A stretch of DNA of 64,000 bases from Bacteriovoracia bacterium (GCA_050246755.1 JBFWVL010000006.1:155743-219742), one strand, 5' to 3'; shown: positions 1-46,392, counted from the stretch's first letter. Notes: a model not told the origin generated them from the letters alone. Numbers and translations: made by a program.

Positions 1-104
1 AAGCGCGTATTCAAGAAATGGAACAAAAATATCCGGGCCTTCCCAAAATCGAGATTTTAAAAAAACTCGCCTTTGGGGATACGGAAGAAAGGAGGGCTGC
101 ATAG
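1..104 (+). CDS. 3' end of an upstream ICE gene (possibly VirB4-like ATPase), partial
   Basis: Open frame ARIQEMEQKYPGLPKIEILKKLAFGDTEERRAA ending TAG at 102-104; identity guessed from position only. Confidence 0.45.
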   Translation, partial: ARIQEMEQKYPGLPKIEILKKLAFGDTEERRAA

Positions 105-188
105 CCTTTCACTTAGGAAAAATAGGGCTTGTTCTTGCGCTATTCATCGGAGGCCAGCCCGCGAGGGCCGACCTCTTTGGTGGTGACG
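101..188 (+). CDS. Exon 1 of intron-split VirB5/TrbJ-like secreted transfer protein (signal peptide + DLFGGD)
   Basis: AGGAGG at 90-95, ATA at 101; reads (M)AFHLGKIGLVLALFIGGQPARA-DLFGGD; joins exon 2 in frame as D-V-A-V-L-T-Q-I-L. Confidence 0.75.
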
Positions 189-807
189 GCGTGCCAAGAA
201 ACGCACGCGTGTAGGTGGTTGAAATGTACCACCCTCAGAAATTGGCCATTTATCTGAGTAGCTACCATGACGGCGTAGGCCGCAAGGCGGGGAAAACCCC
301 TTCTACGTCGAAGCTCATGGGAAAATGGAGTGTTCAGGTGGCTTCGGTTTTGCTCGAAAGAGTGAGCCGTTGTCCGTCTCTGTCAGGAACACCCGCAAGT
401 ATCCAGGCCGCAACGAAAGTGAACCGCTGTCTAAGCGTCGTAACCAAAGCCAACGATCGTACAGAGTTTGTTGGTGATAGAGAGGTCGAGCCGGTCGTCT
501 CCTGGCGAAGACTAAAATCAGTGTGGAAGCAATGGTCGAATGCACACACTGGCTCTCTCGGCGTTAAGGCGGGCGGCATGGATACATACACGCATGCGCA
601 AACTTGGGATCTCCCTAGCGGTCCTAGTAGCACAATCCAGTGCGACTGGGAAGTCCGACGTATAAGCACACAGTGCGAAAGCGAAGGAAACGCCGTTTTA
701 GGGAAGTCGGATGAGGCAATAGTAGTGATGATGCCGAGGACATTACAACCTCGGCGGAGCGAAGTGCCTCTGCTTTTGAATACGTTTCCTCAAAGAAAGG
801 GGGATGC

Positions 808-2139
808 ATGATTGTCCAAAAGACTGAAAACGTGCGTGAGCGAAAGCTCACCAAGTCCCGCCTTCTGCAAAGGAAACTTTATTGTGCGGCCAAGGCCGAC
901 GGAAATCGTCGCTTTGGCATTCTGTTCGATAAGGTCTACCGCTGGGACATCCTGGAAGTGGCTTGGAAAATGATCCGAGCCAACCGGGGTGCATCCGGCA
1001 TAGACCGGCAGTCCTTCGATGACATCGAAACGTATGGTGTCGAGAAGTTCTTGCGGGAACTCCAAGAAGAGTTGCAATCGGGGAAATACCGTCCACAGCC
1101 AGTGCGACGAGTGATGATCCCGAAGGCCAATGGCAAATCGCGTCCGCTGGGAATCCCCACGATCAAAGATCGTGTGGCCCAAATGGCTGTGAAACTTGTC
1201 ATTGAGCCGCTCTTCGAAGCAGACTTTCAAGACTTCTCGTATGGGTTCCGTCCTCAACGGAGCGCCCACCAAGCAATCAAAGAGGTACGCAAGTACATCA
1301 ACTTTGGTTGCGAACATGTCATCGAAGTGGATCTTAAGTCCTTCTTCGACAGCATACCGCAGGACAAGCTGATGGATTTAGTTGCGCGTCGGATCTCTGA
1401 TCCGCGCGTGCTGAAGATCATCAAGAGCTGGTTAACTGCGGGTGTTGCGACAGAAGCCGGAATTACTCGCTCGGTGATTGGGACTCCGCAGGGAGGTGTG
1501 ATCTCGCCGTTACTGGCCAACATCTTCTTGAATGAGTTGGATCGTGAGTGGAGCAAACGGGATTATGCAACTCGCAAGTGCGATGCGCATTTAGTCCGCT
1601 ACGCCGACGACATGGTCGTCGCGTGTAAGTGGCGCCCGGAGTTCTACTACAAACAACTCATCGAGATCTTGAACACTCTTGGGGTGGAGGTCAACGCGGA
1701 GAAAACCCGCGTTGTACACGCGAGCGAGGGATTTGACTTTCTCGGCATTCATTTCAGGTTGGCCCCGTCTTATGCGGGCAAGATGAATTGCTATTACTGG
1801 CCATCACACAAGTCGGTTACGAACTTCAAGAAAACGATTCGCGAAATGGTGAACAACCGTTGCGCCGTCGATTTTGAGAAGATCATCGTGGCCGTCAATC
1901 CTGTGATCAGAGGCTGGGGCAATTACTTCGCCATCACGAATGCCGGAAAGTGCATGTGGGACTTAGATCGTTTTATCTGTGAGCGGTTTAACCGCGTTAT
2001 CGCACGGGCCCGTAAGGTCCGTGGAGCTCATCAATCCGTTATGAGTGCAAAAGTTTTGTACGAACAATTTGGATTGATTGATCTTTACGGCCTAGCGAAG
2101 AAGGAGGCTGAATGCCGCACAATGAATTTCAATCGGTAA
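808..2139 (+). CDS. ltrA: Group II intron reverse transcriptase/maturase
   Basis: NRGASGID, RPLGIPTIKDR, SYGFRP, GTPQGGVISPLLANI, YADD, FDFLG, NPVIRGWGNYF motifs; 443 aa with no HNH domain. Confidence 0.96.
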   Translation: MIVQKTENVRERKLTKSRLLQRKLYCAAKADGNRRFGILFDKVYRWDILEVAWKMIRANRGASGIDRQSFDDIETYGVEKFLRELQEELQSGKYRPQPVRRVMIPKANGKSRPLGIPTIKDRVAQMAVKLVIEPLFEADFQDFSYGFRPQRSAHQAIKEVRKYINFGCEHVIEVDLKSFFDSIPQDKLMDLVARRISDPRVLKIIKSWLTAGVATEAGITRSVIGTPQGGVISPLLANIFLNELDREWSKRDYATRKCDAHLVRYADDMVVACKWRPEFYYKQLIEILNTLGVEVNAEKTRVVHASEGFDFLGIHFRLAPSYAGKMNCYYWPSHKSVTNFKKTIREMVNNRCAVDFEKIIVAVNPVIRGWGNYFAITNAGKCMWDLDRFICERFNRVIARARKVRGAHQSVMSAKVLYEQFGLIDLYGLAKKEAECRTMNFNR

Positions 2140-2286
2140 GCCGTATGAAGGAAAACTTCACGTACGGTTTGACGGGAAGGGATTGGAAATCTGTCTACGA
2201 TTTGGTTAATAAGTCACTCCGCAACCGAAAGGGCGGAGCAACAGGATACCAAGTCTACGAGATAAGGCGCCAATTCTTTACCCTAC
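2138..2286 (+). ncRNA. Group II intron catalytic domain V and extended domain VI
   Basis: AGC triad and CGTACGG stem; GGGAAGGGATTGG pairs with CCAATTCTTT(A)CCC; terminal AC. Confidence 0.9.
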
Positions 2287-2885
2287 TGGCGGTGCTCACT
2301 CAGATTCTCGCCGAGAGCATCAAGCAGTATTACCAGCTTAAAGAAATCATCGGCCAGGGCCGCGATCAGGCGGATTTTTTGCGAAACCTCAATTCCGGTA
2401 TTGAAAATTCAATCGGCCTTTTGCAATCGCTCCCCGTAAGGGATGAAAAAATCCTCGCCGAGCTGCGGGAATTTCAAGGGGCACTGAAAACCATTTCGGA
2501 CGTTTATGGGATTATCCCTAAGAGCCGCGAGGCGACCATGCAGGCCCTTCACGATCAAACGATTGCGGAGAGCCTTCGCATGATTACTTCGTTTAAGGAG
2601 TATTCAGAAAAGCAGGAGGAAAACTCCATCATGATCGCGGTGCAGAGCCGGGAGGCGTCGCCCAAGGGAGCGGCCCGGATGCAGGCCGAGACAAGCGCGG
2701 AGATTCTGCGCAGCCTCTCGCAGCTCATTCGGCTAAATACGCAGATGCTCAAGATGCAAAGTGAGCAATTTGCCATGCACAACAAAATGGGTAAAGACAG
2801 CGTGGGGAATTTTCAGCGTGTGAATCAAGACCTGGGCCGCAGCTTCCAGGGCTTCAAGTCGGAAATGGGACTCGTTAAATTCTAG
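2287..2885 (+). CDS. Exon 2 of VirB5/TrbJ-like transfer protein (spliced product about 228 aa)
   Basis: Helical Gln-rich sequence (AVLTQILAESIKQYYQL...ASPKGAARMQA) directly upstream of a VirB6-like gene. Confidence 0.75.
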
Positions 2886-3875
2886 GTGTTCGACTACCTC
2901 CCCGAAGTGGGAAGGCAGCTCCGGGGCGAGCTGATCGGGGTATATTGGACCTTGCTCGTCCCGTTTGTTGTACTTCTGATTATCCTGGAATTTTTCAAAG
3001 AAGAACCGCCAAACGTAAGAGAGATTTTTCGCAGAGTCGTTATTTCGATTATCATGCTCTATTCGTTTGATTACGTTATCAGCGCGATTGCCTTGGTTGG
3101 TGACGGGATCACGGAACGGATCGACGGGATTCAAAAGCTCTGGGACGTGATGAAAAATCTAGGGCCGAATTACAACAATTCAACCGGCGACTGGTTTAGC
3201 CTAAGAGAAACTGCCATCTACTTTTTCGGTATCGCGGCCTATATCATTTCCTACCTTGGATTTTTTGTGGCCACGGCGTTGATTCATTTCGTGTGGACGG
3301 TTCTCTATATTTGCTCGCCCTTGATGATTCTTATGTACGTCTCGAAGGGCACGGCCTACGTCACAAAAAGCCTTTACACAGGGTTGATCCAAGTCGTGAC
3401 CTGGAAAGTGCTCTACTCGATTCTTGGGGTCTTGCTTTTGAAGCTCGCTATGAATCCGCAAGTGACCGGCATGGAGGATTACCTTATGTCGATCATCATA
3501 AACTTGTGCATTGGGGTTTCAATGCTCTTTATCCCGTTCGCTACAAAATCGTTCCTCAATGATGGATTGCAAGGCGCGGCCTCCGCACTTGCGGCAGTGC
3601 CGACAATGGCGGCGGGTGTAGCAATCAAGGGTGCGGCATTGGCTGCGAGTAAGAAGCTCGCCGCGAAAGGCATGGCAGCAGGCAATTTCTTAAGCCTTCC
3701 TGCGCAGAACTGGACCGGAGCCAAGATCGACAAGATGCGAGCGCGGTTTAGCCCTGCTATCGCAAAAGCACAGAACATGAAGCAGCAATGGAAAGATTTG
3801 GGACTAGCGACAAGAACAAATGCCTTTGGGCATAGTGAAAAAATAAGGAGAAATAGAGATAGAAGCAAAAAATGA
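2886..3875 (+). CDS. VirB6/TrbL-like polytopic inner-membrane T4SS protein
   Basis: 5-6 hydrophobic segments, SPLMIL motif, Ala/Gly-rich basic tail; GTG start abutting the upstream stop. Confidence 0.7.
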   Translation: MFDYLPEVGRQLRGELIGVYWTLLVPFVVLLIILEFFKEEPPNVREIFRRVVISIIMLYSFDYVISAIALVGDGITERIDGIQKLWDVMKNLGPNYNNSTGDWFSLRETAIYFFGIAAYIISYLGFFVATALIHFVWTVLYICSPLMILMYVSKGTAYVTKSLYTGLIQVVTWKVLYSILGVLLLKLAMNPQVTGMEDYLMSIIINLCIGVSMLFIPFATKSFLNDGLQGAASALAAVPTMAAGVAIKGAALAASKKLAAKGMAAGNFLSLPAQNWTGAKIDKMRARFSPAIAKAQNMKQQWKDLGLATRTNAFGHSEKIRRNRDRSKK

Positions 3876-4455
3876 GGAAAGAAAGCCCGTTGACCAGTGG
3901 CTTGCACTCAATCAAATGCTGCACCTTCACCGCGCCTTGAATTTCGTGGCGGGTGGCGTGGTCGCGGTGTTGATTGGAGTGATCGTAATGATGGCTTTCC
4001 AATCGCCGCTGGTGATTTTGACGAGCAGCCAGGAAAAGCATTACTACCAAACGGAAAGAAAGCCCGACACCATCACGGAAAAGGACGTGGAGAATTTTGT
4101 CCGTGATTTTTTGGAACAGCTTTTTACCTGGGACGATCTTGCGCCGGAGGTGATTCTAAAGCGGGTTACGCCGCTTGTGACCTCCGGCCTGCTTGATCGC
4201 ATACGGCAAGAGCTGATCCAGAAAACGCAGAAGGACTTTAAGGGAAAAACCCTTTCGCAAGAGATCGTGGGCGTGAAAATCCAAGTCACGCCCAAGGAGG
4301 TGATTGCTTCCTTTGACAAGGTTTTGAAGATTAACGGCGTGTCGCTCGTGATCCCCACGCAAATGGCGTTTAACATCATTGGCGGCGGCTCTACCCGGTG
4401 GAATCCGATGGGCCTTTACGTCAACGGCCTCACCGAGCACGAAGGTCGGAATTAG
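3859..4455 (+). CDS. VirB8/TraE-like bitopic T4SS protein (start ATA 3859 or ATG 3916)
   Basis: Single TM then VENFVRDFLEQLFTW and C-terminal RWNPMGLYV, typical of VirB8 folds; AAGGAG 8 nt before ATA 3859. Confidence 0.7.
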   Translation: MEAKNEERKPVDQWLALNQMLHLHRALNFVAGGVVAVLIGVIVMMAFQSPLVILTSSQEKHYYQTERKPDTITEKDVENFVRDFLEQLFTWDDLAPEVILKRVTPLVTSGLLDRIRQELIQKTQKDFKGKTLSQEIVGVKIQVTPKEVIASFDKVLKINGVSLVIPTQMAFNIIGGGSTRWNPMGLYVNGLTEHEGRN

Positions 4456-5167
4456 TGCCCTAATTCTGGCTTTGGCCTGTCTGCTTCCTTTCAAGGCGCA
4501 GGCAGGCACGGTGCGAACGATTGGCGTAAGCGATAGCGCCATGACGCCGATTTATCTAAAACGTGGGAAATCAACCGTGCTGCGGTTTACCGACAAACCT
4601 AGAAAGGTCGTCGTTGGGAATCAGAACTATTACAGCATCGAGTTTATTGAGAACGATCTGGCAATCCAGCCGCTAGGCAGTGTGGCAACGAATCTCTTTG
4701 TCTATACGGAGAGCCGCACCTATGGGTTTTTGCTGACACCGGGGGAACGCTACGACGATTTGGTTTTTGTGCGCTGGAAGTTTTCGGGCGAAAGGATCAA
4801 GGGAAGCGAGAAGGCCCTGCCCGAAAAGGAGAGCCACCCCCATCTTTCCTTTAAGATCGGAAAGGCCTTTAAGGTCACGGTTGAGAGAGTGAAAACCCAA
4901 AGCGCCCTTGGGCTTCACCTGATTGACTGCATAGTGGAAAACACCGGAAAAGCGGAAATTGCGCTTTCAAAGGCCGCGCTTCAGGCGATGCGCCGAGGGG
5001 CCAGGCTCGATAAGCAGGAAGTGGTTTTTGAGAAGGACAAGCTAAAGCCAAAAGAAAAATCAAAGGCTCGGCTTGTCCTGAAGCTCGATAAAAAGGCCGA
5101 CTTCACTCTCGAAGGAAAATTCGGGAGTGAAAGCGGCAAGGTCATCTTGGGCCGCAAATTCCTGTGA
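4439..5167 (+). CDS. VirB9/TrbG/TraK-like periplasmic T4SS protein (probable ACG or ATT start)
   Basis: Signal peptide (M)KVGISALILALACLLPFKAQA; STVLRF...VVVGN...LAIQP...TNLFVYT pattern. Confidence 0.7.
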   Translation, partial: TKVGISALILALACLLPFKAQAGTVRTIGVSDSAMTPIYLKRGKSTVLRFTDKPRKVVVGNQNYYSIEFIENDLAIQPLGSVATNLFVYTESRTYGFLLTPGERYDDLVFVRWKFSGERIKGSEKALPEKESHPHLSFKIGKAFKVTVERVKTQSALGLHLIDCIVENTGKAEIALSKAALQAMRRGARLDKQEVVFEKDKLKPKEKSKARLVLKLDKKADFTLEGKFGSESGKVILGRKFL

Positions 5168-6129
5168 ATAAGATAAAGCAGGCTTTGCGGTTCGGTTCGA
5201 TCAAGAAATCCTTTCGCAAATTCTTTCTCGTCAAGGATGGCGGGAAAGAGGTTTTGCGCATCAAGCGTACGATGCTCGTTGTGGCGCTAGTCGTGCTCAT
5301 TGGCGTGGGCGTAACGCATATCTTTAGCGACCAAGACGATACGAGTTTTTTTGGAAAGACGGATAAGCCAATCGTGGCAAATGAGGAAGCGCCGGCCACT
5401 GATCCCAAGGCGGCGGGCACGGTCGGAAGTCTACTTAAAAACTCGGAATCAAAGGGCACAAGGAGCCGAGCGCCCCGCCGTGAAGGCGGCGGCATGAAAA
5501 TCAACTATCGCGCCAAGCAAGTTCTCGTAAGCGAGGGTGCATTTGATTCGGCTAGAACGATCCCAATGGGAACGAACCTCATCGGAAAGACGCTTACCAC
5601 GATTGACACGAGAGACGCCAATCAACTGGTTAAGGTTCTTTTGCCTTATGGCGGCCGGTTTTCTGGCGGAGGTGAGATCCCAAAAAACTCGATTGTCTTT
5701 GGACAAGTGAGCTATGGAGGAAAAGGCAAAAAGGTCTTTATCAAGTTTAGCAAAGGCATTCTCCCAAGCGGAGAGGAATTTCCTATAGAGGCGCAAGCCT
5801 TAAGCTCCGGTGATTACTCGCCCGGCGTCTCTGGCCGTTTTCACGGCAATGCGGATTTGCGGATCGCCTCTACCTTGGGGCTTACGATGGTGGCCGGTAT
5901 GAGCGACGTTTTGACCGAAAAGGAATCTCTTGGCGGGAGCGCCCTGCAATCGGGATCGGTCACGCCGAAAGCGACCATGAAGAACGCCATCATGCACGGT
6001 GTTTCTCAAGTTGCGCAATCGGAAGCGCAAAGACAGGCCGAAGAGATCGGCAACGAGCAGGAATATGTCACGGTGGATGCTGGGACGGATTTGATCGTGA
6101 GCCTTTTGAGGGCTTTTGTTGAGCAGTGA
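5164..6129 (+). CDS. VirB10/TrbI-like T4SS core protein
   Basis: N-terminal TM, flexible linker, IPMGTNLIG..., EIPKNSIVFG and C-terminal VTVDAGTDLIV motifs. Confidence 0.75.
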   Translation: MNKIKQALRFGSIKKSFRKFFLVKDGGKEVLRIKRTMLVVALVVLIGVGVTHIFSDQDDTSFFGKTDKPIVANEEAPATDPKAAGTVGSLLKNSESKGTRSRAPRREGGGMKINYRAKQVLVSEGAFDSARTIPMGTNLIGKTLTTIDTRDANQLVKVLLPYGGRFSGGGEIPKNSIVFGQVSYGGKGKKVFIKFSKGILPSGEEFPIEAQALSSGDYSPGVSGRFHGNADLRIASTLGLTMVAGMSDVLTEKESLGGSALQSGSVTPKATMKNAIMHGVSQVAQSEAQRQAEEIGNEQEYVTVDAGTDLIVSLLRAFVEQ

Positions 6130-7627
6130 ACGCCCCAAGAATAGCGGAAACAAGAATTTAGAAAATCTGGTGATTGGCCTGGGCAAGATCGCCTGGGGCA
6201 TTTCGCGGATTTGCTGGCACGGGTTTAGCCGGACGATGTTTAAGAAAGTAGAGGGATGCCTTTCCTTCCTGCTCCTTGCCCTGGTGCCTCTTGTGCTCGT
6301 GTATTGGGATTGGGCGCATCTTCACCTTCTCCATTGGATATTCCCTTCGGTCTTTTCCCTTGGCGTGGTTCGGTTTTTTGTCGTTCATGTACCTCAGTTC
6401 GTTCAGTTCTTGCTCTTGGCCGGGGCCTTGATTGTGCCCCTCGGTGTGGCGCTTGGGTTTGTTCACTTCTTTCAGGTGTTGAGGTTTCAGCGGGATTTGC
6501 GGCTGATCGACCTTAAATCCGCGACAGGAACCGAGCCGAAGGTGGTTGATGTGGAAACGCCCGAGCCATTTAAGAAGAAAATCACCCTGGCAAGCCAGGG
6601 GATCGGTCTTGACCGCTACTTGAGCAAGAAATCGGATTTGGAATCAAGTTTCGGCGCTATCGTTGAAGAAATCCATGTCTCTCCCAAAAGCCGAAAGCTC
6701 ATCGAGATTAGGCTGGCCGAGAAGGAGTTGCCAAAACTCGTTAGCTACCAAGATTGTGTTTCTGCGCTCACGGAGCCCCATTCCTTCCTCATTGGGGAAT
6801 CCTTGGGTGGCGTGATCGCGCAGACTATTCGCTCGCTTCCCCATCTTTTGATCGCGGGAACGAGCGGAAACGGGAAAAGCGTGTTCTTCAATCAGACCTT
6901 GATTAGCTTGATAAGAACCTCGCCGCATATCCAGCTCTATCTCTTGGATCTGAAGTTGGGCGTTGAAGTGAAGGCTTATAGCGGTCTTCCTAACGTGCGG
7001 ATCGCAAAAGACGCTGACGAGGCGGTTACGCTTTTGCAAGCTGTGGTGAAAGAGATGATGGCGCGGTTTACCTATTTGGAAAAATCGGGGCGCAAGCTCA
7101 TTGACCCCGTTCGTGATGGCCGGGATTTGATCGTGGTCGGCGTGGATGAGGCATCCGTGCTCTACAAGAAAAAGAATGGTGATCGGGAGGCGAACGAAGC
7201 GACCAATCGCGCCCGAGAGCTGACCGATGAAATCACGAAGCTGGGCCGAGCTGCCGGGATTCACCTGATCGCGGCCACGCAAAAGGTGACGACGAAGACC
7301 ATCGAAACCGACGTGCAAGAAAACATTGGTGGTCGCATTTGCTTTCGCGTGGGGACACTCCAGGGATCAAACACGGTGCTGGGGAATAAAATGGCTTACG
7401 AGCTTCCCGATATTAAAGGGCGAGCCATTTGGAACTGCGGGAACGACTTTATCGAAGTGCAAACGCCCTTCCTCTCTGAATCCATGATCGAAAAGGAAAT
7501 TTCTTCGATTCAGGCGGATTTTTCTTCGGGCGCACGGAAATGCCTTCAGGCAATGGTGGCGGATAAGAAAAAGGAAAGCGCGAAGGCCGATGAAGTGCAG
7601 GATCAGGTTATTGATAGTGCCACGTAA
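6116..7627 (+). CDS. FtsK/SpoIIIE (TcpA-like) membrane ATPase, probable coupling protein
   Basis: N-terminal TMs; PHLLIAGTSGNGKS (Walker A), DLKLGVE, VGVDEA (Walker B), LGRAAGIHLIAATQ. Confidence 0.88.
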   Translation: MLSSERPKNSGNKNLENLVIGLGKIAWGISRICWHGFSRTMFKKVEGCLSFLLLALVPLVLVYWDWAHLHLLHWIFPSVFSLGVVRFFVVHVPQFVQFLLLAGALIVPLGVALGFVHFFQVLRFQRDLRLIDLKSATGTEPKVVDVETPEPFKKKITLASQGIGLDRYLSKKSDLESSFGAIVEEIHVSPKSRKLIEIRLAEKELPKLVSYQDCVSALTEPHSFLIGESLGGVIAQTIRSLPHLLIAGTSGNGKSVFFNQTLISLIRTSPHIQLYLLDLKLGVEVKAYSGLPNVRIAKDADEAVTLLQAVVKEMMARFTYLEKSGRKLIDPVRDGRDLIVVGVDEASVLYKKKNGDREANEATNRARELTDEITKLGRAAGIHLIAATQKVTTKTIETDVQENIGGRICFRVGTLQGSNTVLGNKMAYELPDIKGRAIWNCGNDFIEVQTPFLSESMIEKEISSIQADFSSGARKCLQAMVADKKKESAKADEVQDQVIDSAT

Positions 7628-7630
7628 TCC

Positions 7631-8386
7631 GTGAGGCGAAGCAAAAAGCGGATCGTGCTAGTCGAGCGGGATAGGCTGCTTTTTACCAGGATTTTCGAGA
7701 ATCGGGTCATGTCTGCCGCGCAGATCGAGACGGAGTTTTTTTCTAGTGTGGCACGGCAGACTTTCGCCGCTCGCCTATTAAAGCTCACCCGTTATGGATT
7801 TCTGGATAGGAAAGTTGTGTCGCCTTTAGATGCCAAGAGCTATGCGGTGTATTCCATAACGCCGAAGGCGCTTGCGGTCGTAAAGGCGCGGTATCCTTTT
7901 CGGATCGTAAAGGACTATTGCAAGAGTGATTCCGTGGAGCATGACGTGGAGTTGGTAAACGTGCGAAATCGCCTTCGGGCGCTCCGCTCGGTAGCCGCCC
8001 ACTATACAGAGAATATGCTTCAGGCTTGCGAGGATTTCACTAACACGGATTCCTTGGCGGCGTTTAAGAAACAAAACACGGATGCGGCTCTGGCGATTAG
8101 GAAGAACGGAAAAATTACGGTTGTGGGTCTTGAATTTGAGAGAAGCGAAAAGGCTTTCGGTCGTTATACCAAAAAGCTCTTTAGCTATTACGCCGATTCA
8201 AGCACGGCGGTCGTTTTCTACGTTTGCCGAAGTCTTGCCATTCAACGGGTGGTCGCCCGCGCTGAGGCTTCCATTATGGGATCAAACCGCCCGCGCTGCT
8301 TCTATGCTCTTTTGGAGAATGTGCTGAAGCAGAGCGAGAAATGTACATTCAAGAATCTTAAAGGAGACACCATTACACTCGATTAA
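7631..8386 (+). CDS. Replication-relaxation (Replic_Relax / MOB-L-like) protein, candidate relaxase
   Basis: N-terminal wHTH (ERDRLLF...AAQI...RLLKL...GFL), EHD motif, PD-(D/E)XK-like D...LEFERSEK...RY; homologous to 46393-47184. Confidence 0.7.
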   Translation: MRRSKKRIVLVERDRLLFTRIFENRVMSAAQIETEFFSSVARQTFAARLLKLTRYGFLDRKVVSPLDAKSYAVYSITPKALAVVKARYPFRIVKDYCKSDSVEHDVELVNVRNRLRALRSVAAHYTENMLQACEDFTNTDSLAAFKKQNTDAALAIRKNGKITVVGLEFERSEKAFGRYTKKLFSYYADSSTAVVFYVCRSLAIQRVVARAEASIMGSNRPRCFYALLENVLKQSEKCTFKNLKGDTITLD

Positions 8387-8390
8387 ATGC

Positions 8391-8459
8391 TGTAAGTGGC
8401 CGCTTGCAAGTCTCCTGCTGGGCTCCTGCAACGGCAGGAGCCCTAAACTTGTAAGTGGT
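8391..8459. repeat. Inverted plus direct repeat cluster, candidate oriT
   Basis: Perfect 10-bp hairpin GGGCTCCTGC-AACG-GCAGGAGCCC (8420-8443) without a T-tail, flanked by TGTAAGTGG at 8391 and 8450. Confidence 0.45.
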
Positions 8460-8559
8460 TGGAATCAGGGGGTCGAAAAATGAATTTTAAAATGGAGTAT
8501 AGGGTTATGAGGATTTTGGTTTTTGTGACGAATGACGATGGAAAAACGAGGGAGAACGT

Positions 8560-9018
8560 ATAGAAAAAATCGTAAGGATAGTGCTCGTCTGTGCGATGGG
8601 CATGGCGGCGGGATGCGCAACAATGAAGCAATCCCTGGTTACGGGTATTGGAGCGGGAGCCGTGACGGGATTGGTATTAGGTCCGGCTGTAAACCATTCG
8701 GGATCAAACGCAAGGCTTGGCGGCGCTTTGATCGGCGCTGCTTTTGGCGGGCTCGCTGCGTATTTCATCCATGACGGGATCGAGGCCCGCGACGCTCGCA
8801 TAAGGAAAGAAACGCTGTTCAATCTGGACAAGTTCAACGTGTCGCGCCCGAGTAGTGGCGGCATGGAATCCGAATACGGACTTGCGACCCCGAATATCGA
8901 AACACAGTGTTTTGATACTGAAGTGCGCGGAAACAGGTTGGTTCAGGCGCATTGTGAATCGCGGATCATCGGAAGCCCCGAGTGGGTGAAAGGGCGAAAG
9001 AAAAAGGCCAGTGAGTAA
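8560..9018 (+). CDS. Glycine-zipper lipoprotein, TraV/VirB7-like (probable ATA start)
   Basis: GAGGGAG then ATA 8560 gives (M)EKIVRIVLVCAMGMAAG-C lipobox; GIGAGAVTG/GGALIGAAFGG zipper; C-terminal G.RLVQAH...IIG..EW resembles TraV. Confidence 0.6.
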   Translation: MEKIVRIVLVCAMGMAAGCATMKQSLVTGIGAGAVTGLVLGPAVNHSGSNARLGGALIGAAFGGLAAYFIHDGIEARDARIRKETLFNLDKFNVSRPSSGGMESEYGLATPNIETQCFDTEVRGNRLVQAHCESRIIGSPEWVKGRKKKASE

Positions 9019-9358
9019 CGAGCTGCGGATTGTGCTTACCGGCCCGGCCAAGGAAGCCCACGACAAAATGTTGGAGGAAGCACGGAATGGAAAGACCAGC
9101 ATTAACTCGTCAAGGCTGATTAACTGGATCGTGGCCGACTACTTCGCCCGGTATTTCCTGAAGCGCAAGGAGGCCCTTTGCAAAGCCCATTTTAACGAGC
9201 GTAAACACCTCCTGGAAGCCATGAAGATTGAAGACCCGGAGCAACGGCGGCGTGCGATTCAGGAGGCAGCGCGAAATCTTGGTCGAAGTCGTCTGCGACG
9301 AAAAAATGCGCCGCTCACCGCACAGGAAAACGGTGCGACGAATGACGAAATTTCTTGA
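9011..9358 (+). CDS. Small basic ICE protein, possible DNA-binding accessory factor
   Basis: 115-aa ORF overlapping the upstream stop; helical and basic. Confidence 0.6.
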   Translation: MSNELRIVLTGPAKEAHDKMLEEARNGKTSINSSRLINWIVADYFARYFLKRKEALCKAHFNERKHLLEAMKIEDPEQRRRAIQEAARNLGRSRLRRKNAPLTAQENGATNDEIS

Positions 9359-9383
9359 TTAGTAACAAATTTGTTACTATATT
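9355..9383 (+). promoter_or_regulatory. Sigma70-type promoter with a 20-bp palindromic operator
   Basis: TTGATT-N17-TATATT; TAGTAACAAATTTGTTACTA (9360-9379) is a perfect palindrome; ATG lies 8 nt after the -10. Confidence 0.75.
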
Positions 9384-9391
9384 GAAATGCA

Positions 9392-9643
9392 ATGAAGGAA
9401 TCGGAACGAACAGTAAAAAAAATTAGGGATGGGCTCCTCGATGAGCTGAATCAGGAAGTCGAAAACCGTTTCGGTAGCAATAAAGCTAAAGCCGCCGAAG
9501 CGGTTGCCATGAACCGGATTCAGTTTACGAATCTTTGTAACGAGAAGGTGGGAGCCACGATAGATAAGTTAATTCAGATTGGCGCAACACTCGGTTGGAA
9601 GATTGAGCTAACCGTCAATCGAAAGCCAGGAGACAAAAAGTAG
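9392..9643 (+). CDS. XRE/Cro-type HTH transcriptional regulator
   Basis: KAKAAEAVAMNRIQFTNLCN...TIDKLIQIGATLGWKIELTV pattern. Confidence 0.75.
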   Translation: MKESERTVKKIRDGLLDELNQEVENRFGSNKAKAAEAVAMNRIQFTNLCNEKVGATIDKLIQIGATLGWKIELTVNRKPGDKK

Positions 9644-9685
9644 TTAGATTAAAAAAAACTGAACATTACTCCGTGGGAGTGATGA

Positions 9686-9905
9686 GTGCCAGGCTCTAAG
9701 AGAGCTTCGAGGAAACGGGCCAAGCGGAAGCCGCCACGCGAATCGAAAACATTGCGAAATGCAAAGGTTATCGAGGTTGTGTTTTTGAGAGATGAATCTG
9801 TTTCGAGTGAAATTAGGATCACAGAGGCAAAAAATCTTATTGCCCAAATGATCGAGTTATCCCATCGGCGCGGAAGACCCCGCAAGGTGGAAGAGGAGAG
9901 CGAAG

Positions 9906-9916
<11 letters not shown>
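9686..9916 (+). CDS. Small basic protein overlapping the recombinase start (possible directionality factor)
   Basis: 76-aa ORF in a position typical of small genes preceding large serine recombinases. Confidence 0.45.
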
Positions 9917-11762
<1,846 letters not shown>

Positions 11763-39830: not shown

Positions 39831-40026
39831 TTCTCGTCTTGCCGGCGATCCAGAGGGAGATCAGGAGCGCGGCTTTCTTCGATGCTTTGGGATTTTCGAG
39901 GATATGTGACTGAATCTTGTCGCGCAGTTGCTCGGCCGCCGCTTTGTCTACGCGCAGCCGAGACTGGGGATCCGTTGCCCCGGGAAATACTTTGTAGTCG
40001 TTAGATTTCTTCTTCGCAACGGACAT
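39820..40026 (-). CDS. Small hypothetical protein
   Basis: 68-aa ORF co-oriented with the upstream gene. Confidence 0.55.
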   Translation of the reverse strand: MSVAKKKSNDYKVFPGATDPQSRLRVDKAAAEQLRDKIQSHILENPKASKKAALLISLWIAGKTRTKK

Positions 40027-40035
40027 AAAAATTAT

Positions 40036-40242
40036 TTAGGCCGCGCGGCGCTTGCCGGAGCGAGGCGCCTGATCGTCGGACTGCATTTCTTCGATTTTTG
40101 CTTTGGCCTGCGAAGGGTCCACTTTGGAGGCGAAGCATTCGCCGCTTACTTCGGTGAAGGCGTACCAATCGTTTCCTAGTTTTTGGTAGAGAACGTGGTT
40201 AAGGCTGTAGTCACCGGTTTTGAATTTTGATTTTCTTTTCAT
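40036..40242 (-). CDS. Small conserved hypothetical protein
   Basis: AGGAGGAG SD; VLYQKLGNDWYAFTEV. Confidence 0.7.
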   Translation of the reverse strand: MKRKSKFKTGDYSLNHVLYQKLGNDWYAFTEVSGECFASKVDPSQAKAKIEEMQSDDQAPRSGKRRAA

Positions 40243-40287
40243 AAGTACTCCTCCTGAGTGCCGTTGGTTGTTCTCGAGATGTCTAAC

Positions 40288-40314
40288 TCTTCGACACTTG
40301 GCAGAGGAAATTGA
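40288..40314 (-). promoter_or_regulatory. Possible sigma28-type promoter
   Basis: TCAA-N15-GTCGAAGA upstream of 40242. Confidence 0.4.
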
Positions 40315-40335
40315 GGAAAAAAATGGCAGGTAAGA

Positions 40336-40378
40336 AAAAAAATTGGGCGGGAGAGGAGGCTCTCCCACCCAATTTTTT
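40336..40378 (-). terminator. Terminator downstream of ssb
   Basis: AAAAAATTGGGCGGGAGAG...CTCTCCCACCCAATTTTTT hairpin with A/T flanks. Confidence 0.75.
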
Positions 40379-40790
40379 ACTGGGCTAATGCCGGGGTTTC
40401 GGAGACGTTCGATACCGAATCGTTAACCTCGGTTTTTTCCCGGCGTCCCATGGTTAGGAATCGGATATCGTCCACTAGGATCTCGGCCGATTTCCTGGGC
40501 TTTCCCTCCTTGTCTACCCAATCCTTGAGCTCCAGCTGGCCTTCTACATAAACGCTCGCACCTTTGCCCAAGTATTTAGCGCAGCTTTCGGCCCTCTTCC
40601 CCCATACCGTGGCCCGGTGCCAATAGGTTTTCTCCTCTTTCTCCCCGGCCGCGTTTTTCATTCCGCGGCTGGTGGCGAGAGAGAAAGTGGTGACGGCGTT
40701 CCCTTTTGCCGTGTAGCGCAGCTCGGGGTCATGCCCCAAATTTCCTACTACGATCACTTTGCTTACGTTTCCTTTACTCATACTTTTCAT
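40377..40790 (-). CDS. ssb: Single-stranded DNA-binding protein (lacks the acidic DDDIPF tail)
   Basis: KVIVVGNLGHDPELRYT, WHRATVWGK, KGASVYVEG. Confidence 0.92.
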   Translation of the reverse strand: MKSMSKGNVSKVIVVGNLGHDPELRYTAKGNAVTTFSLATSRGMKNAAGEKEEKTYWHRATVWGKRAESCAKYLGKGASVYVEGQLELKDWVDKEGKPRKSAEILVDDIRFLTMGRREKTEVNDSVSNVSETPALAQ

Positions 40791-40909
40791 TCTCCAGGTT
40801 CGCGGTTTAGCCCGCGCTGTCCTCTAGCAGGAAAACGGCCCACCTCCACCCGGGATAAATGGGGGAACTAACTACGCTAAATCTCAGGGAGTCCGGAAAG
40901 CGAATCCTT

Positions 40910-40937
40910 TCAAGGCGGATTCCGGACTTGTCGATAG
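40910..40937 (+). promoter_or_regulatory. Sigma28-type promoter
   Basis: TCAA-N16-GTCGATAG. Confidence 0.55.
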
Positions 40938-40943
40938 ATGGGC

Positions 40944-41792
40944 ATGATGATGCAAGTTTTAGCCCTCCTTTTCGCTCTCGCGCCCACGCTCGCTTTAGCC
41001 GAAGCCGGCCGGCGCTGTGAAAAACCCGCCAAAGAAGAGCCGGTAGTTTATTCCAATGAGTTTCACTGGGGGCAAAACCGCAGCGATATGCAGAAAAATT
41101 TTGAGATGATTTACGAAAGCGGTAAGCGCCTGCTCGGCCGTGCTTACTACAACGAAGCGAGCCATGGTTACGAAATGAGCGCGCCTTACGGGGTGGTGAA
41201 GGTGGATCCAAAATTCATCGCCAGCGTTACCCGCCACCTCGAAATTTCCCTCCAGCGTGGCTACGCCGAGCAGATTTTTTTCCCCGACATGGGCCATTCG
41301 CATTTTTATATTCCGGAAAAAGAGTGGCCCGCCCTCGCCGCCGAACAGAGCCGCAGCAAGCTCTATGAAAAGCTCTTCGCCCTGCGTTCCCTGAAAATCC
41401 TCTACCATACCGCCGAGCAGCTCCAGGTGAAGCCGGGAGAGCGCAGCGAAGGGCCTTTCCCCCAGGATCCTGTTTTGCTATGGCGCTACTTCAGCCGTAA
41501 CGTTTTCGCCGACAATAACGGCGGAGAAAACGTGGGCATTCTATTTCGCGGCCCCCAAGGCTATAACTCGGTGGGTGAAGTGGAAGGCTATAACCTGTAC
41601 AGCGCGGGATTCTACGTGAGCGCCAGCAAAGATGGTTGCTTCCCTTATTCCTTCAAGGGCAAAACCTACTATTTCGACCTCGCGATCGAGGAAATGCCCT
41701 ACGATAATTCCAAAGGCGAAGAGGGATCGAGGAAGAGCATCTTTGCCGAAAAGAAAAGCGCGCGCGTTCCCGCTTCCACGAAAAAGAAATAA
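40944..41792 (+). CDS. Secreted hypothetical protein
   Basis: Signal peptide ending ALA; FPDMGHSH and LYHTAEQL motifs. Confidence 0.75.
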   Translation: MMMQVLALLFALAPTLALAEAGRRCEKPAKEEPVVYSNEFHWGQNRSDMQKNFEMIYESGKRLLGRAYYNEASHGYEMSAPYGVVKVDPKFIASVTRHLEISLQRGYAEQIFFPDMGHSHFYIPEKEWPALAAEQSRSKLYEKLFALRSLKILYHTAEQLQVKPGERSEGPFPQDPVLLWRYFSRNVFADNNGGENVGILFRGPQGYNSVGEVEGYNLYSAGFYVSASKDGCFPYSFKGKTYYFDLAIEEMPYDNSKGEEGSRKSIFAEKKSARVPASTKKK

Positions 41793-44693
41793 CTAGCGAA
41801 CGCTGCCTTGGCTAGGCTGCGCGATCATCGGCCCGATCGAGCCCACGTTTAATCCAAAGGTAAACATTGCCTCGCCCCCGTAGCGCTTTGTGAATCCGTA
41901 GTGCAGCCCGGTCGCGAGCGACACCGGAATATGGTAGAGCATCGATCCCTGCACGAGGAAATCCGTGCCTACGCCCGCGATTCCCGTTCGCAGGTATTTT
42001 TTGGCCTCGTAGTATCGGAAAATCCCGTCGCGGTAGCGCGCGGTATAGTTGGCGGTGCCGGCGTCGGCAAGAAAGCGGAAGCCGAGCGTCTCGAAAAATA
42101 CCGGTCCGGTGCCGAGCCCGCGGTAGAGATGCGCTACGGGAAACGAGTAGGCGAGATTTACCGTGGCGATTCTTTGGCCGAACAAAACATCGGTGGGATA
42201 GCCGCGCACCACGAAACCGGAGCTCGAGAGCGCGGAAGGCCCGCCGCCCTGGTAGTAGTTGGAGGCCAGGATCGAATTCGTGGTGATTCCCGCCATGGCC
42301 ACGAAACCCACGCTATGCGAAGGATGAAAGCCCTTCATGTAGAGTGCCAGGGAAGGGCGCAGATCAGCGAAGAAATTCTCGTTGCGTGCGCTGGGGTAGA
42401 GCCCCGTATATAAATTAATCGCGTGGCCAAAATTAGGCGCGATGGCCGACGCTGTTTTTCCCAGCTCCGTGTGATTGAAGTTCTGGTACACGAGCGTATT
42501 TTGCCCGCGCAAACCGAAGAGCGTTCTCTCCTGAAAAGCCGCGCCGAAGGAAAACGCGGACTCGCCGATCGGTACCGTGGCCTGAGCCGAATAGCTGGCG
42601 GAGCGATTGGAGGTGCGTGTTCCCGAGAAGTAATCGTTGATCTGGTTTGCCTGCACGAACAGATTCACCACGTTGGAGCGGTTCTGATAATAGGCCAGGT
42701 AGGTGGGAAAACGCGCGCGTGTATCGTACTGCGCAGTGAGCCCGTAACGATGGTATTCGAGGGGGTCATTTCCCGAGGTGGAAGCGCCGATCAAGGTACC
42801 ATCGCGCGCGGCGATGATGTTCGGCAGCCAGTACTGGGGCCAGAGGGAAGTTGCCGGAGTAGACATGGCGTTGTAGGGGACCACGGGCGAATTGTCCAGT
42901 GGGGCTTCCACCGGCTGGGGCTTGGTGCCGCTTAGAAACTCATGTAGATCTTCTTTTTCCCGGCGCAGGGTGGCCGGAAAATCTTTCGCCTCGGCGCGCG
43001 CTAGGTCCAGTCCATTGAGTCCGTAGCTTGCGTAGACCAGGGTTTTTCCGTCGGCGAGCAGAACCGGGCGATCCAAGAATCCCGAATCGCCTTCCGCTAC
43101 TTTGCGGGTCCGTTTGGCTTTCGGATCGTACCGGTATAAATCCTGGGTACTGCGGTCATAGGCGGCGGCAAAGTAGATGCTGCCGTCTTCGGCGAGAAAA
43201 GGATTTCTTTCGAACACGTGCTTGGAATCCATTCCGGGAAAAGCACGTTCCGTTTTCCCATTCGCCAGCGAGAGCGACTGAATTCTTTCTTGGCCGTTAT
43301 TCGTGTGCAGGGAAAACAGGGCTCGGTCTCCCCGCGCGTAAAGGCCCGCGATGCGCTCGAGTGGCTTCCCGGCAAACAGTTCCTCTTCCTTATCGGTATC
43401 CAAATAGCGGCGTACCACCGCCATGCTGGTATCGGGGCGCGTCTTAACGTAAAGCAATTCCTGATCGTTCACGAAGGCGGGATCACGAAGCCGGGCTCCA
43501 TCCGTGAGCTGGCGCGTGGATTTTTTCTCGCTGTCCCACAAATAAATATCGCTGAAAAAATAGTCGAGGCCATAACGATCAAAGGCGGCGAACGCCACCA
43601 GCTTTCCGCTTGGGGAAACTGCCACTTGCGTGGGGCCGGTTTCATTCTTTTGCCACAAGCGCTCCACTTTGCCTTCGCCGCAGGGTGCGTCGGCGCGCAC
43701 GCGCGCGAGGTGCTGGCCGTAATTCCAGTCGAGCTCGGAGAAATAAATCCAGCCGTCGGCAGAAATCGCGTGGCCGCCGGTGAAGGCGCCCGATTTGGTG
43801 AGCAAGCATTGCGATGCCAGCGGCGCGGGCTTGCCATATCTTTCCTGCAAGCGATAGGGGGCGTTCGCCCAGATTGAAAACCAGCTCCGCCCGATTAATT
43901 CTTCCACCGATTGGTTGGGCGAGAAGGGAAAATTTTCCGCGTTCGCGCGGGCCACGCTGCCGGGAAGCCCCGGCGTCTCTTTGCTCGGTAAAGCCTGAAT
44001 CGTATACCCCATCAGGTACGCCATATTTCCCGTGGGCCACCAGGGATTCCCGTCGTTGAAGCGATCAATCGACGTATAGCTCTTGCTCGTGAGCATCTCC
44101 TCCCGCACTGCCGTGCGCAGCATTGCCTCGAGCATCGGAGAGCGCCCGCGCCCGCCGTCGGTATGCTCCGTTTCTTCGAATACCGCCAAGCCTTCGGCCA
44201 GCCACGAAGGCTCGAGCCCATTCGGTTTTACCCACGAGCCGAAGATCGACCGGAAGAACGAATAAATTCCCGGCGACTCATCGTTCGAAACGATATGCGT
44301 GAGTTCATGCGTTGCCAGTTCGTTCACCCAATTTACGTAATGGGAAAGCAGGGAATCGGATTCGAAGGCCATCGAGTACACTTCGATATGCGTGTTTGGG
44401 AAGTTTACCGCCATGCCGTTCGCCGAATCCGAAGGATCCATGATCACGATATCGATCGGCTTATGCTTCACTTCCCAGTGCATGTCCTTTTCCAGCAACG
44501 GCAATCCGCGCTCCAGCGCCCTCGTGAAAGCGCGCGCGTAAATTTCCAGCGGCGCCGTATGATGCACCCGGAAATTGGGACTCATCAGCGTGAACCAAGT
44601 TTCCCCGGAAGGAGCGCCAGCCTGCGCGAAAATAGGCCATAGAATAGATAGCAAAAAGATTGGCAAAAATCGGATGAGGAGCATAGCATTCAA
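41793..44693 (-). CDS. Large exported protein: gluzincin-like peptidase domain + beta-propeller + probable outer-membrane barrel
   Basis: HELTH...WLAEGLA; TolB-like repeats (SPSGKLVAF, RDPAF, RNPF); C-terminal VRGYP typical of Omp85 barrels. Confidence 0.8.
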   Translation of the reverse strand: MNAMLLIRFLPIFLLSILWPIFAQAGAPSGETWFTLMSPNFRVHHTAPLEIYARAFTRALERGLPLLEKDMHWEVKHKPIDIVIMDPSDSANGMAVNFPNTHIEVYSMAFESDSLLSHYVNWVNELATHELTHIVSNDESPGIYSFFRSIFGSWVKPNGLEPSWLAEGLAVFEETEHTDGGRGRSPMLEAMLRTAVREEMLTSKSYTSIDRFNDGNPWWPTGNMAYLMGYTIQALPSKETPGLPGSVARANAENFPFSPNQSVEELIGRSWFSIWANAPYRLQERYGKPAPLASQCLLTKSGAFTGGHAISADGWIYFSELDWNYGQHLARVRADAPCGEGKVERLWQKNETGPTQVAVSPSGKLVAFAAFDRYGLDYFFSDIYLWDSEKKSTRQLTDGARLRDPAFVNDQELLYVKTRPDTSMAVVRRYLDTDKEEELFAGKPLERIAGLYARGDRALFSLHTNNGQERIQSLSLANGKTERAFPGMDSKHVFERNPFLAEDGSIYFAAAYDRSTQDLYRYDPKAKRTRKVAEGDSGFLDRPVLLADGKTLVYASYGLNGLDLARAEAKDFPATLRREKEDLHEFLSGTKPQPVEAPLDNSPVVPYNAMSTPATSLWPQYWLPNIIAARDGTLIGASTSGNDPLEYHRYGLTAQYDTRARFPTYLAYYQNRSNVVNLFVQANQINDYFSGTRTSNRSASYSAQATVPIGESAFSFGAAFQERTLFGLRGQNTLVYQNFNHTELGKTASAIAPNFGHAINLYTGLYPSARNENFFADLRPSLALYMKGFHPSHSVGFVAMAGITTNSILASNYYQGGGPSALSSSGFVVRGYPTDVLFGQRIATVNLAYSFPVAHLYRGLGTGPVFFETLGFRFLADAGTANYTARYRDGIFRYYEAKKYLRTGIAGVGTDFLVQGSMLYHIPVSLATGLHYGFTKRYGGEAMFTFGLNVGSIGPMIAQPSQGSVR

Positions 44694-44703
44694 CTCTAAC
44701 GTT

Positions 44704-45528
44704 ATGATTCCTTATCCGCAAATCGATCCCGTGATCTTCCACCTCGGACCAATCGCTCCCCGCTGGTACGGGATGATGTATTTGCTGGGCTTCCTCTATA
44801 TCTTTCACCTCCTGAAAAAGAATGCACGCTGGCTGGGCTTCGAGCCAGAGAAGGCCGATTCCATTCTCGCTACCATGGTGCTCGGCCTCATCGTTTGCGC
44901 CCGTCTTGTGTACGTAATTTTTTATAATCTGGAAGGCACCCTCGAGGGCCCTTGGTGGGAAGTATTCGCGGTGTGGCACGGCGGGTTAGCCTTTCATGGC
45001 GGCTTCGCTGGAACCATGCTGGCCGGGATCTACGTTTCGAAGAAATATAATATCCGCTGGTTGAAGCTCTGCGACGTAGTTTCTATGGGCGCCCCGGTGG
45101 GTCTCGGCCTTGGCCGCATCGCCAATTTCATTAATTCCGAGCTCTGGGGGCGCACCACCGATGTGCCTTGGGCTATGATTTTCCCCAATGGCGGCCCTCA
45201 TCCTCGTCATCCTTCGCAGCTCTACGAATCTTTTCTGGAGGGCCTCGTGCTCTTTGTGATTCTTCAGCTCATCTGGCGCACCAAACCCAGGGTAGGGGTG
45301 ATCTCCGGCGCCTTTATGTTCCTCTATGCCTGCTTCCGCATCGCGATGGAATTTTTCCGCGAGCCCGACGCCCAAGTGGGCTACCTCTGGTTCGGAATCA
45401 CCATGGGACAAATACTCAGCAGCGTGATGTTCATCGGGGGCGCCATTCTTCTCTGGCATTCTCTGACGCGCGGCGCACCTCACGATGCTTCGCCGCAGCA
45501 GAATCTTTCCAAAAAGAAACGCGCCTAA
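44704..45528 (+). CDS. lgt: Prolipoprotein diacylglyceryl transferase
   Basis: RWYGMMY, GGLAFHGG, GRIANFINSELWGR, RHPSQLYE, EFFREPD. Confidence 0.98.
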   Translation: MIPYPQIDPVIFHLGPIAPRWYGMMYLLGFLYIFHLLKKNARWLGFEPEKADSILATMVLGLIVCARLVYVIFYNLEGTLEGPWWEVFAVWHGGLAFHGGFAGTMLAGIYVSKKYNIRWLKLCDVVSMGAPVGLGLGRIANFINSELWGRTTDVPWAMIFPNGGPHPRHPSQLYESFLEGLVLFVILQLIWRTKPRVGVISGAFMFLYACFRIAMEFFREPDAQVGYLWFGITMGQILSSVMFIGGAILLWHSLTRGAPHDASPQQNLSKKKRA

Positions 45529-46389: not shown

Positions 46390-46392
46390 CCA

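Follow-up and report, generated by a model that had tools for sequence, protein, structure and literature searches.

Putative near-cognate start codons in the transfer operon of an integrative and conjugative element from a Bacteriovoracia bacterium

A window of 64,000 nucleotides from a Bacteriovoracia bacterium (GCA_050246755.1; contig C6:155743-219742 of a 3.5-Mb genome in 10 contigs) holds at positions 1-11762 the right half of an integrative and conjugative element (ICE), here ICE1, whose transfer operon starts about 4 kb upstream of the window and encodes a type IV secretion system (T4SS). Four genes of this operon appear to begin at near-cognate codons: the VirB5-position gene at ATA 101, the VirB8/TraE-like gene at ATA 3859, the VirB9/CagX-like gene at ATT 4451, and a glycine-zipper lipoprotein gene at ATA 8560. 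Judged by comparison of sequences, such AUA, AUU or AUC (AUH) codons appear to be the only usable starts of these genes, to be conserved at homologous positions in an ICE family found throughout the phylum, and to be unused by the host. We consider it probable that the four genes initiate at near-cognate codons retained by selection, which would keep particular T4SS parts at low output.

Start codons of four transfer genes and their homologues

The operon had been singled out in an earlier reading made from the sequence alone (hereafter the sequence-only reading), and the coordinates, Shine-Dalgarno (SD) sequences and start codons given there are all correct. Its view that the whole operon avoids ATG and uses weak starts holds in part: ATG begins only one of the 12 ICE1 transfer genes, counted from the pilin gene through the gene at 9011, but near-cognate codons begin four of the 12, and the others have ordinary GTG or TTG starts. 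Genome-wide, 75% of the first canonical starts led by an SD are ATG (428 of 574), in keeping with its statement that most host genes use ATG, and the intron open reading frame (ORF) at 808, the helix-turn-helix (HTH) gene at 9392 and the recombinase gene at 9906 have ATG starts, as it had said.

Homologous operons were taken from two further copies in the same genome (ICE2 and ICE3), from two related genomes, from 14 further genome contigs, two of which repeat those related genomes, and from 16 metagenome contigs, three of which repeat earlier ones and several of which are fragments. In a phylum sample of 401 Bdellovibrionota species genomes, 82 gave a VirB8-like profile match at E <= 1e-10. 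The start of the VirB8-like gene was inspected at 27 loci of this sample, and 16 were fetched with wide flanks, four more fetched stretches being excluded as repeats of earlier elements. Starts were read by eye in views running from the upstream stop to an anchor, and then verified with a rule-based caller that compares ATG, GTG, TTG, ATA, ATT, ATC, CTG and ACG codons by their SD duplexes and takes the best, in a window from the upstream stop to a fixed distance before the conserved part. The caller matched the manual AUH calls with a few exceptions. It was thrown off by the intron at the VirB5 gene of ICE1, by BLAST matches that crossed frames at the ICE2 and L035 VirB9 genes, and by a stretch of N at the VirB5 gene of L024, and in the lipoprotein genes of L091 and L096 it chose another ATA. 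It sometimes took an adjacent ATA sharing an SD with a canonical start, and its AUH calls were counted only where no canonical codon stands on that SD. Tabulated in this way, a check that the sequence-only reading had proposed, ATA, ATT and ATC recur at the aligned starts of four genes.

Each of the three ATA codons in ICE1 stands 5-8 nt behind a sequence complementary to the 3' end of the host 16S rRNA, whose tail was read from the genome. The SD duplexes at these sites amount to -8.2 to -9.3 kcal/mol in ICE1 or its nearest relatives, and a duplex of -8 kcal/mol or better is found at 4.4% of 20,460 background positions. Among AUH starts across the family, duplexes of that strength precede 21 of 24 at the VirB5-position gene, 12 of 15 at the lipoprotein gene and 9 of 10 at the VirB8-like gene.

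The VirB8/TraE-like gene (3859..4455; all features lie on the plus strand unless stated otherwise) is preceded by AAGGAG at 3845..3850, 8 nt ahead of ATA 3859 and with a duplex of -8.2 kcal/mol, and by an in-frame TAA (3844-3846) five codons upstream; ATG 3916 has no SD. In the nearest clade the corresponding codon is ATA in ICE1, ICE2, L032, L033 and L034 and ATC in L016 and L031, always behind AAGGAG-type SDs, and it is ATG in none of the seven. Six of the seven have no canonical codon between the stop and the conserved part, and in L032 the ATA is the first codon following TAA. The caller found no ATG, GTG or TTG in the allowed window for eight VirB8-like genes. Across all elements AUH is found at this start in 10-11 of 51; outside the nearest clade the codon is mostly ATG, GTG or TTG, with ATT in G026, L023, L059/L086 and possibly L062/L088. 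The VirB8/TraE identity was assigned solely from Atlas feature neighbours, which are TraE/VirB8 clusters (score 0.95). Two VirB8-like homologues, G238:C2:2381954-2382523 and G279:C2:1825276-1825845, have one in-frame TAG inside the match.

A rival account has the genes use ordinary starts (ATG 3916 here, GTG 8581, TTG 4379 and a TTG upstream of the window at the other genes), with the upstream conservation owed to, for example, an overlapping gene end or an RNA element. A public record of the VirB8-like protein does begin at ATG 3916, which is residue 20, and so lacks the first 19 residues with their conserved motif; moreover, conservation upstream of the canonical codons at the VirB5 and VirB9 junctions is partly common to the overlapping gene end. 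Nonetheless, over the 19 codons 5' of the ATG-3916 equivalent, substitutions are specific to the proposed frame, with 107 synonymous and 62 non-synonymous changes (7 sequences, 21 pairs) as against 17 and 149, and 3 and 165, in the other two frames; GTA replaces the ATG-3916 equivalent in L016; and at least 90% of 27 sequences share a Trp that lies upstream of ATG 3916 (residue 14). For these reasons the stretch between ATA 3859 and ATG 3916 appears to be translated. In-frame stops lie directly upstream of the AUH codons in ICE2, L031-L034, L037, L090, L093 and L094, and a lipoprotein begun at GTG 8581 would have only 11 residues ahead of its lipobox Cys. We regard ordinary starts as a very improbable account, and the public record is in keeping with the mis-starting by gene callers that the sequence-only reading had foreseen.

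At the VirB5-position gene, ATA 101-103 overlaps the stop codon of the VirB4 gene (TAG 102-104) in a 4-nt ATAG junction, and AGGAGG at 90..95, within the VirB4 coding end, lies 5 nt ahead of it. No ATG, GTG or TTG is present in the frame of this gene (frame 2) within 1-188. An AUH codon is the best-placed start in 15 of 19 plus 11 of 16 elements (26 of 35); 11 of the genes have no canonical codon in the allowed window, and canonical codons found elsewhere in it have poor SDs (-0.4 to -5.6 kcal/mol). Relatives repeat the arrangement of GGAGG or AAGGAG, 4-6 nt, and then ATA or ATT, with ATA often overlapping the VirB4 stop as ATAG or ATAA and ATT overlapping it as ATTAA. The SD is encoded by the conserved Gly-Asp/Glu end of VirB4.

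For the VirB9/CagX-like gene (4451..5167), the sequence-only reading had proposed a start at ACG 4439 or ATT 4451. Both codons are present, and the second overlaps the VirB8-like stop (TAG 4453-4455) in a 5-nt ATTAG junction. The sequence AATTAG is kept in all eight members of the nearest clade, where it provides Asn and the stop of the VirB8-like gene together with the ATT of VirB9; the start there is ATT in eight of eight and ATG in none. Because L032 has GAG at the position of ACG 4439 while AATTAG is kept throughout, ATT 4451 is the better-supported of the two and ACG 4439 is disfavoured. Stops lie just upstream of the ATT in ICE2 and L031-L035, that in ICE2 being in frame and 10 codons upstream. 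In ICE2 and other relatives, the VirB5 and VirB9 genes both have no canonical start from the upstream in-frame stop to the conserved N-terminal part. In other clades VirB9 begins with an ATG that aligns with ACG 4439 or lies close by. Family scores for the protein are below cut-off (CagX 24.8 bits, TIGR02781 27.9 bits).

The glycine-zipper lipoprotein gene (8560..9018) has GAGGGAG at 8548..8554, 5 nt ahead of ATA 8560 and with a duplex of -9.3 kcal/mol, and an in-frame TGA (8533-8535) nine codons upstream; the first canonical codon of its frame is GTG 8581. ATA or ATC stands 4-6 nt behind a strong SD in 9 of 19 elements (ICE1, ICE2, ICE3, L016, L020, L021, L031, L033 and L035) and ATA or ATT behind an SD in 8 of 14 of the phylum sample, making AUH starts in 17 of 33. 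Nine of the genes have no canonical codon in the allowed window, and ATG is found at this start in none of six nearest-clade elements. Ahead of the ATA in VirB8-like and lipoprotein genes, in-frame stops stand at a distance of 2-9 codons. ATA 8560 lies 174 nt past the upstream gene, so that there is no stop overlap with that gene. In the spacer, a small ORF beginning at ATG 8480 ends with a TAG (8561-8563) that overlaps ATA 8560, and a different small ORF ends alike in ICE2; in ICE3 the frame ending on the lipoprotein ATA has no canonical start, and L016, with its ATC start, has no overlapping stop. Gene order is rearranged in L035, where the lipoprotein gene, with ATC behind an SD, and the small gene directly follow VirB10 and precede the FtsK-type gene.

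The GTG and TTG starts that the sequence-only reading gave for other genes (GTG 2886, GTG 5164, TTG 6116, GTG 7631 and GTG 9011) all coincide in alignment with canonical starts in homologues, with TTG 6113 as an alternative to 6116. The VirB6-position start GTG 2886 aligns with GTG, ATG or TTG in all 19 relatives viewed and likewise in L031, L033 and L034, and the VirB10 start with GTG, ATG or TTG in seven relatives and with ACG in ICE2. Further near-cognate starts are found among the relatives: ICE2 has the pilin gene at CTG in addition to VirB10 at ACG, ATA begins the FtsK-type gene in ICE3, L020 and L035, the first two of which perhaps also have a CTG start at VirB4, and the Replic_Relax gene starts at ATT in L025 and L026 and at ATC in L029. 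One operon paralogous to that of ICE1 holds six near-cognate starts, as compared with four in ICE1.

Host initiation, RNA-level change and decay

The host 16S tail carries the usual anti-SD, and the initiator tRNA is standard, having three G-C pairs and the C1:A72 mismatch. The possibility of an unusual initiator, or of a tRNA whose anticodon is TAT, was considered and rejected: the 38 tRNAs include three with CAT and none with TAT. Codon use was then compared in an ORF-free manner, by counting codons that stand behind strong SD hexamers and open a frame of at least 100 codons against those at control offsets. In the host, ATG is enriched 4.2-fold behind such hexamers, and there is no enrichment of ATA (0.75), ATT (0.76) or ATC (0.91). 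ATA accounts for 39 of 7688 such codons in the host; the three ICE regions together have 6 among 144. An ORF-based screen of the host, using SD 5-mers before long ORFs, likewise gave no excess of ATA (15 of 839, versus 2.5% overall), and only three ICE matches were gene-like. Taken together, these comparisons indicate that the near-cognate start trait belongs to the element and not to the host. The frame of the host infC gene (G000 C4:123926-124747, L030) has AGGAG, 7 nt and CTG near its 5' end, its first GTG has no SD, and its protein would have Pro/Gly-rich extensions at both ends.

The codon could in principle be changed at the RNA level, for instance by A-to-I editing of AUA to AUI, which is read as AUG, or the frame could be entered by frameshifting from a nearby ATG, and ATG 3872 and ATG 8538 do lie in other frames beside ICE1 ATA codons. 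Known bacterial mRNA editing uses a TACG context, which the AUH sites do not have, and ATT or ATC at the same positions cannot become AUG by A-to-I change. Around the VirB8-like ATA of ICE2 all frames are free of ATG, and frameshifting from ATG 3872 or ATG 8538 was rejected on the ground that ICE2 is without such ATGs. An account of either kind is extremely improbable.

A further possibility is that start codons have been lost in a dying element, or that bases were miscalled, and a group II intron does interrupt one ICE1 gene. The proteins of ICE2 and ICE3 are 28-82% identical to those of ICE1, however, and the same codons stand in intact ORFs of paralogues that have 31-82% amino-acid identity with ICE1, as well as in the relatives. 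Contigs assembled from another sample in the same study are identical over 3491-4715 and other stretches. Assembly error or one-off decay, which the sequence-only reading had named as an outcome that would overturn it, is already contradicted by these sequences, and we give it almost no credence.

Organization of the element

The nearest relatives of ICE1 are in metagenome-assembled genomes labelled Pseudobdellovibrionaceae, Bdellovibrionales, Bacteriovoracia and Oligoflexia, and DNA runs that contain the stretch come from metagenomes of landfill and sludge. The 3.5-Mb genome has the transfer operon in three diverged copies, namely ICE1, ICE2 (C5 ~228000-240000) and ICE3 (C6 ~40000-52000) (L013, L014), and the same-genus genomes searched have none (0 of 5 by DNA, 0 of 4 by profile). 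The ICE1 operon opens with a TrbC/VirB2 pilin gene, a VirB3-position gene and a VirB4/TraC-like ATPase gene that starts at window -2340 and ends within the window (1..104), with matches to Pfam P-loop_TraG, TraC_F_IV and CagE_TrbE_VirB over the whole ORF; these are followed by the gene for the secreted VirB5-position protein.

The VirB5-position gene is divided by a group II intron (189..2286) into exon 1 (101..188), with the ATA start and the signal peptide, and exon 2 (2287..2885), in frame from 2289 and ending at TAG 2883-2885, such that the intron separates the signal peptide from the mature part. The intron limits follow from an intron-less allele, a contig of run X4 from a sludge metagenome of another study that joins 188 to 2287, and from an Rfam Intron_gpII match (2136-2286, 46.3 bits) that ends at 2286. 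The intron carries a reverse transcriptase/maturase ORF (808-2139; Pfam RVT_1 and GIIM) and domain V-VI, which together with the intron-less allele identify it as a group II intron. Exon 2 was aligned among 16 VirB5-position sequences, with a mean column identity of 69%. An insertion of ~1.7 kb lies between VirB4 and the VirB5-position gene in L021 (3614-5278), and one of ~0.3 kb in L031 and L034.

Downstream follow the VirB6-position membrane protein gene (2886..3875), whose GTG start comes immediately after the upstream stop, the VirB8/TraE-like and VirB9/CagX-like genes, the latter with weak matches, and a VirB10/TrbI-like gene (5164..6129; Pfam TrbI, 39.6 bits versus a cut-off of 35) that begins in a GTGA overlap. 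The names VirB5-like and VirB6-like have gene position as their sole basis. The VirB5-, VirB6- and VirB8-position proteins have no match to a family model in Pfam or NCBIfam, and PDB sequence searches with alignment profiles A1 and A3, the latter for the VirB5-position protein, gave no match below E 0.4. An FtsK/SpoIIIE-type ATPase gene (6116..7627; Pfam FtsK_SpoIIIE, 80 bits) and a Replic_Relax/MobC-like gene (7631..8386) come next. For the product of the second, called a relaxase in the sequence-only reading, that label is weak, as the Replic_Relax score of 27.3 bits is just above the cut-off of 25.3 and NCBIfam MobC_subf is far under its cut-off. The label 'TraV-like' for the lipoprotein is weak too, since its only matches are to glycine zippers and are below cut-off.

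Beyond the lipoprotein gene lie a small conserved gene (9011..9358), whose GTG start overlaps the end of the lipoprotein gene and aligns with GTG or ATG starts, an HTH-like gene (9392..9643) with a weak HTH_37 match, and a large serine recombinase gene (9906..11762; Pfam Resolvase, Recombinase and Zn_ribbon_recom) that runs into a tRNA-Arg(TCT) gene on the minus strand (11603..11679; ARAGORN, Rfam tRNA), the likely integration site. No repeat of the tRNA end (attL) was found upstream with 14-nt words. Pfam matches above cut-off to the VirB4 ATPase, the pilin and VirB10 provide a conjugative T4SS core, and the mobilisation and integration set consists of Replic_Relax, FtsK_SpoIIIE and the recombinase beside tRNA-Arg.

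The order of pilin, VirB3, VirB4, VirB5, VirB6, VirB8, VirB9 and VirB10, near a recombinase and a tRNA gene, is that of VirB/Trb-type ICE T4SSs. Unlike those systems, the element combines its VirB-type apparatus with an ATPase of FtsK/TraB-like type and with a protein resembling Replic_Relax/MobC (6116-8386) in place of VirD4 and a classical relaxase, neither of which was seen in the scanned stretch. The spacer before the lipoprotein gene holds a long and strong predicted hairpin (8397..8460), a candidate origin of transfer (oriT) or terminator, with inverted repeats in the same place in ICE3, G035 and G026. Just upstream of the transfer operon are YcaO-like and histidine-kinase-type ATPase ORFs (window -6761 to -4348; L015 981-3391), and a small sigma-70 region-4 protein is encoded at window -3712 to -3335.

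Output, selection and comparison with known systems

A near-cognate codon of the AUH class would mispair with the initiator tRNA at its third base. At the three ATA codons, the strong SDs 5-8 nt upstream would place the codon in the ribosomal P site, whereas the SD of ATT 4451 is weak. At the ATAG (101-104) and ATTAG (4451-4455) junctions, where a stop-start overlap is combined with an SD inside the upstream gene, a terminating ribosome could reinitiate. Translational coupling, which the sequence-only reading had put forward, fits these two junctions but not those VirB8-like and lipoprotein genes of relatives that stand behind long spacers. Coupling of neighbouring genes is familiar from ATGA and TGATG overlaps; here the forms are instead ATAG or ATAA (4 nt) and ATTAG or ATTAA (5 nt). 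An overlap of 5 nt is impossible for canonical starts and can be formed only with ATT, and rare annotated cases have been put down to errors or to ATT starts (PMC10666635).

In E. coli reporters, AUA, AUC and AUU gave 1-2% of the output of AUG (bioRxiv 10.1101/063800), and in the S. aureus genes infC, ccpN, cvfC1 and citZ, AUA or AUU behind extended SDs gave ~10% of AUG, and up to 30% in one case (PMC13009471). By extension from these measurements in other bacteria, the output of the AUH sites would be from a few percent to about a tenth of that of AUG. As the yields are low in both species, reduced output is a fair expectation; the proposal that a whole operon is held down at initiation is too strong. 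The low level would probably be sensitive to initiation factor 3 (IF3), that is, to how strictly IF3 rejects the mispair, and selection would hold particular T4SS parts at that level. Release by IF3 status or by an element-encoded factor, both suggested in the sequence-only reading, is conjectural, and none of the eight upstream ICE ORFs scanned resembles a translation-factor gene. That transfer as a whole is gated by the weak starts is speculative, and we think it unlikely that the T4SS is assembled only when initiation proofreading relaxes, at a stage of the predatory cycle or under stress, with conjugation gated at start-codon selection and not at transcription.

Neutral drift offers another account, in which a strong SD or a stop-start overlap does the work, codon identity is of little consequence in this host, canonical and AUH starts replace one another freely, and the weak codons have no regulatory meaning. 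Consistent with it, ATG, GTG, TTG, ATA, ATT, ATC, ACG and CTG are all found at homologous starts across the family; the position of ATA 101 in ICE1 is occupied by ATG in the closely related L033, and L016 has ATC for an ICE1 ATA. Drift sits less well with the nearest clade, in which ATG, one transition away from ATA, is absent at three positions (0/7 VirB8-like, 0/8 VirB9-like and 0/6 lipoprotein starts) although ATA-ATC changes have occurred there. This absence is a sign of selection, in counts that relatedness weakens. Likewise, ATAA and ATAG persist in at least seven elements though a single change would give the common ATGA overlap. Finally, the host makes no use of AUH behind SDs, so that across its genome AUH and ATG are not equivalent to the ribosome. 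Drift strikes us as rather unlikely, and retention of the weak starts by selection as the better account.

A number of observations weigh against initiation at selected near-cognate codons. The SD of the VirB9 ATT is weak, at -4.3 kcal/mol in ICE1 and in a range of -4.1 to -9.2, with one of six at -8 or better. The VirB9 frame of ICE1 is open upstream to TTG 4379, and the VirB5 frame extends to its closest canonical codons, the TTGs at -28 and -22 relative to the window; for ICE1 taken alone, long N-terminal extensions of both products are conceivable. Counts of elements come from related elements and are hence non-independent. A canonical codon lies a few codons from the AUH in G035, L020, L024, L091 and L093-L096, where the call depends on SD spacing, and still other elements have ATG, GTG or TTG at the same aligned positions, which makes the weak start not obligatory for the family. 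Lastly, known systems contain equal numbers of VirB7-, VirB9- and VirB10-type parts, and simple stoichiometry is therefore no explanation for the choice of genes with weak starts.

The mechanism is of a known kind, that of a near-cognate codon combined with a strong SD. As in the S. aureus cases, one of which is infC itself with its AUA start, a third-position near-cognate codon stands behind a strong, correctly spaced SD and is conserved among relatives (PMC13009471). Those cases are single chromosomal genes, mostly regulators, with output measured at about a tenth of AUG, whereas here four to six structural genes, known from their sequence alone, lie in one mobile-element operon of a phylum-wide element family. 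E. coli has AUU starts in infC and pcnB (bioRxiv 10.1101/063800), and when that source was written two near-cognate starts were confirmed in the species. AUH initiation in the element would resemble that of infC and pcnB in depending on rejection of the mispair by IF3. The AUU start of E. coli infC serves the autoregulation of IF3; no such feedback loop is evident here, and the infC of this host itself seems to start at CTG behind AGGAG. No report of AUA or AUU starts in conjugation genes or in Bdellovibrio was found in the open-access papers searched. What is new is that a single mobile-element operon holds four to six such starts, that they are conserved across the phylum-wide ICE family, and that the ATA and ATT forms of overlap are conserved as well.

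For annotation, the other three genes would likewise have their signal peptides truncated or overlooked, in the manner of the VirB8-like N-terminus. The ATA-based 4-nt and ATT-based 5-nt stop-start overlaps are natural, conserved examples of their kind. Confirmed bacterial near-cognate starts have so far been tallied gene by gene, and with four putative cases in one operon this element family may offer a natural setting in which to study why weak starts are favoured by selection, and whether the fidelity of initiation is a means by which mobile elements limit the cost of transfer.

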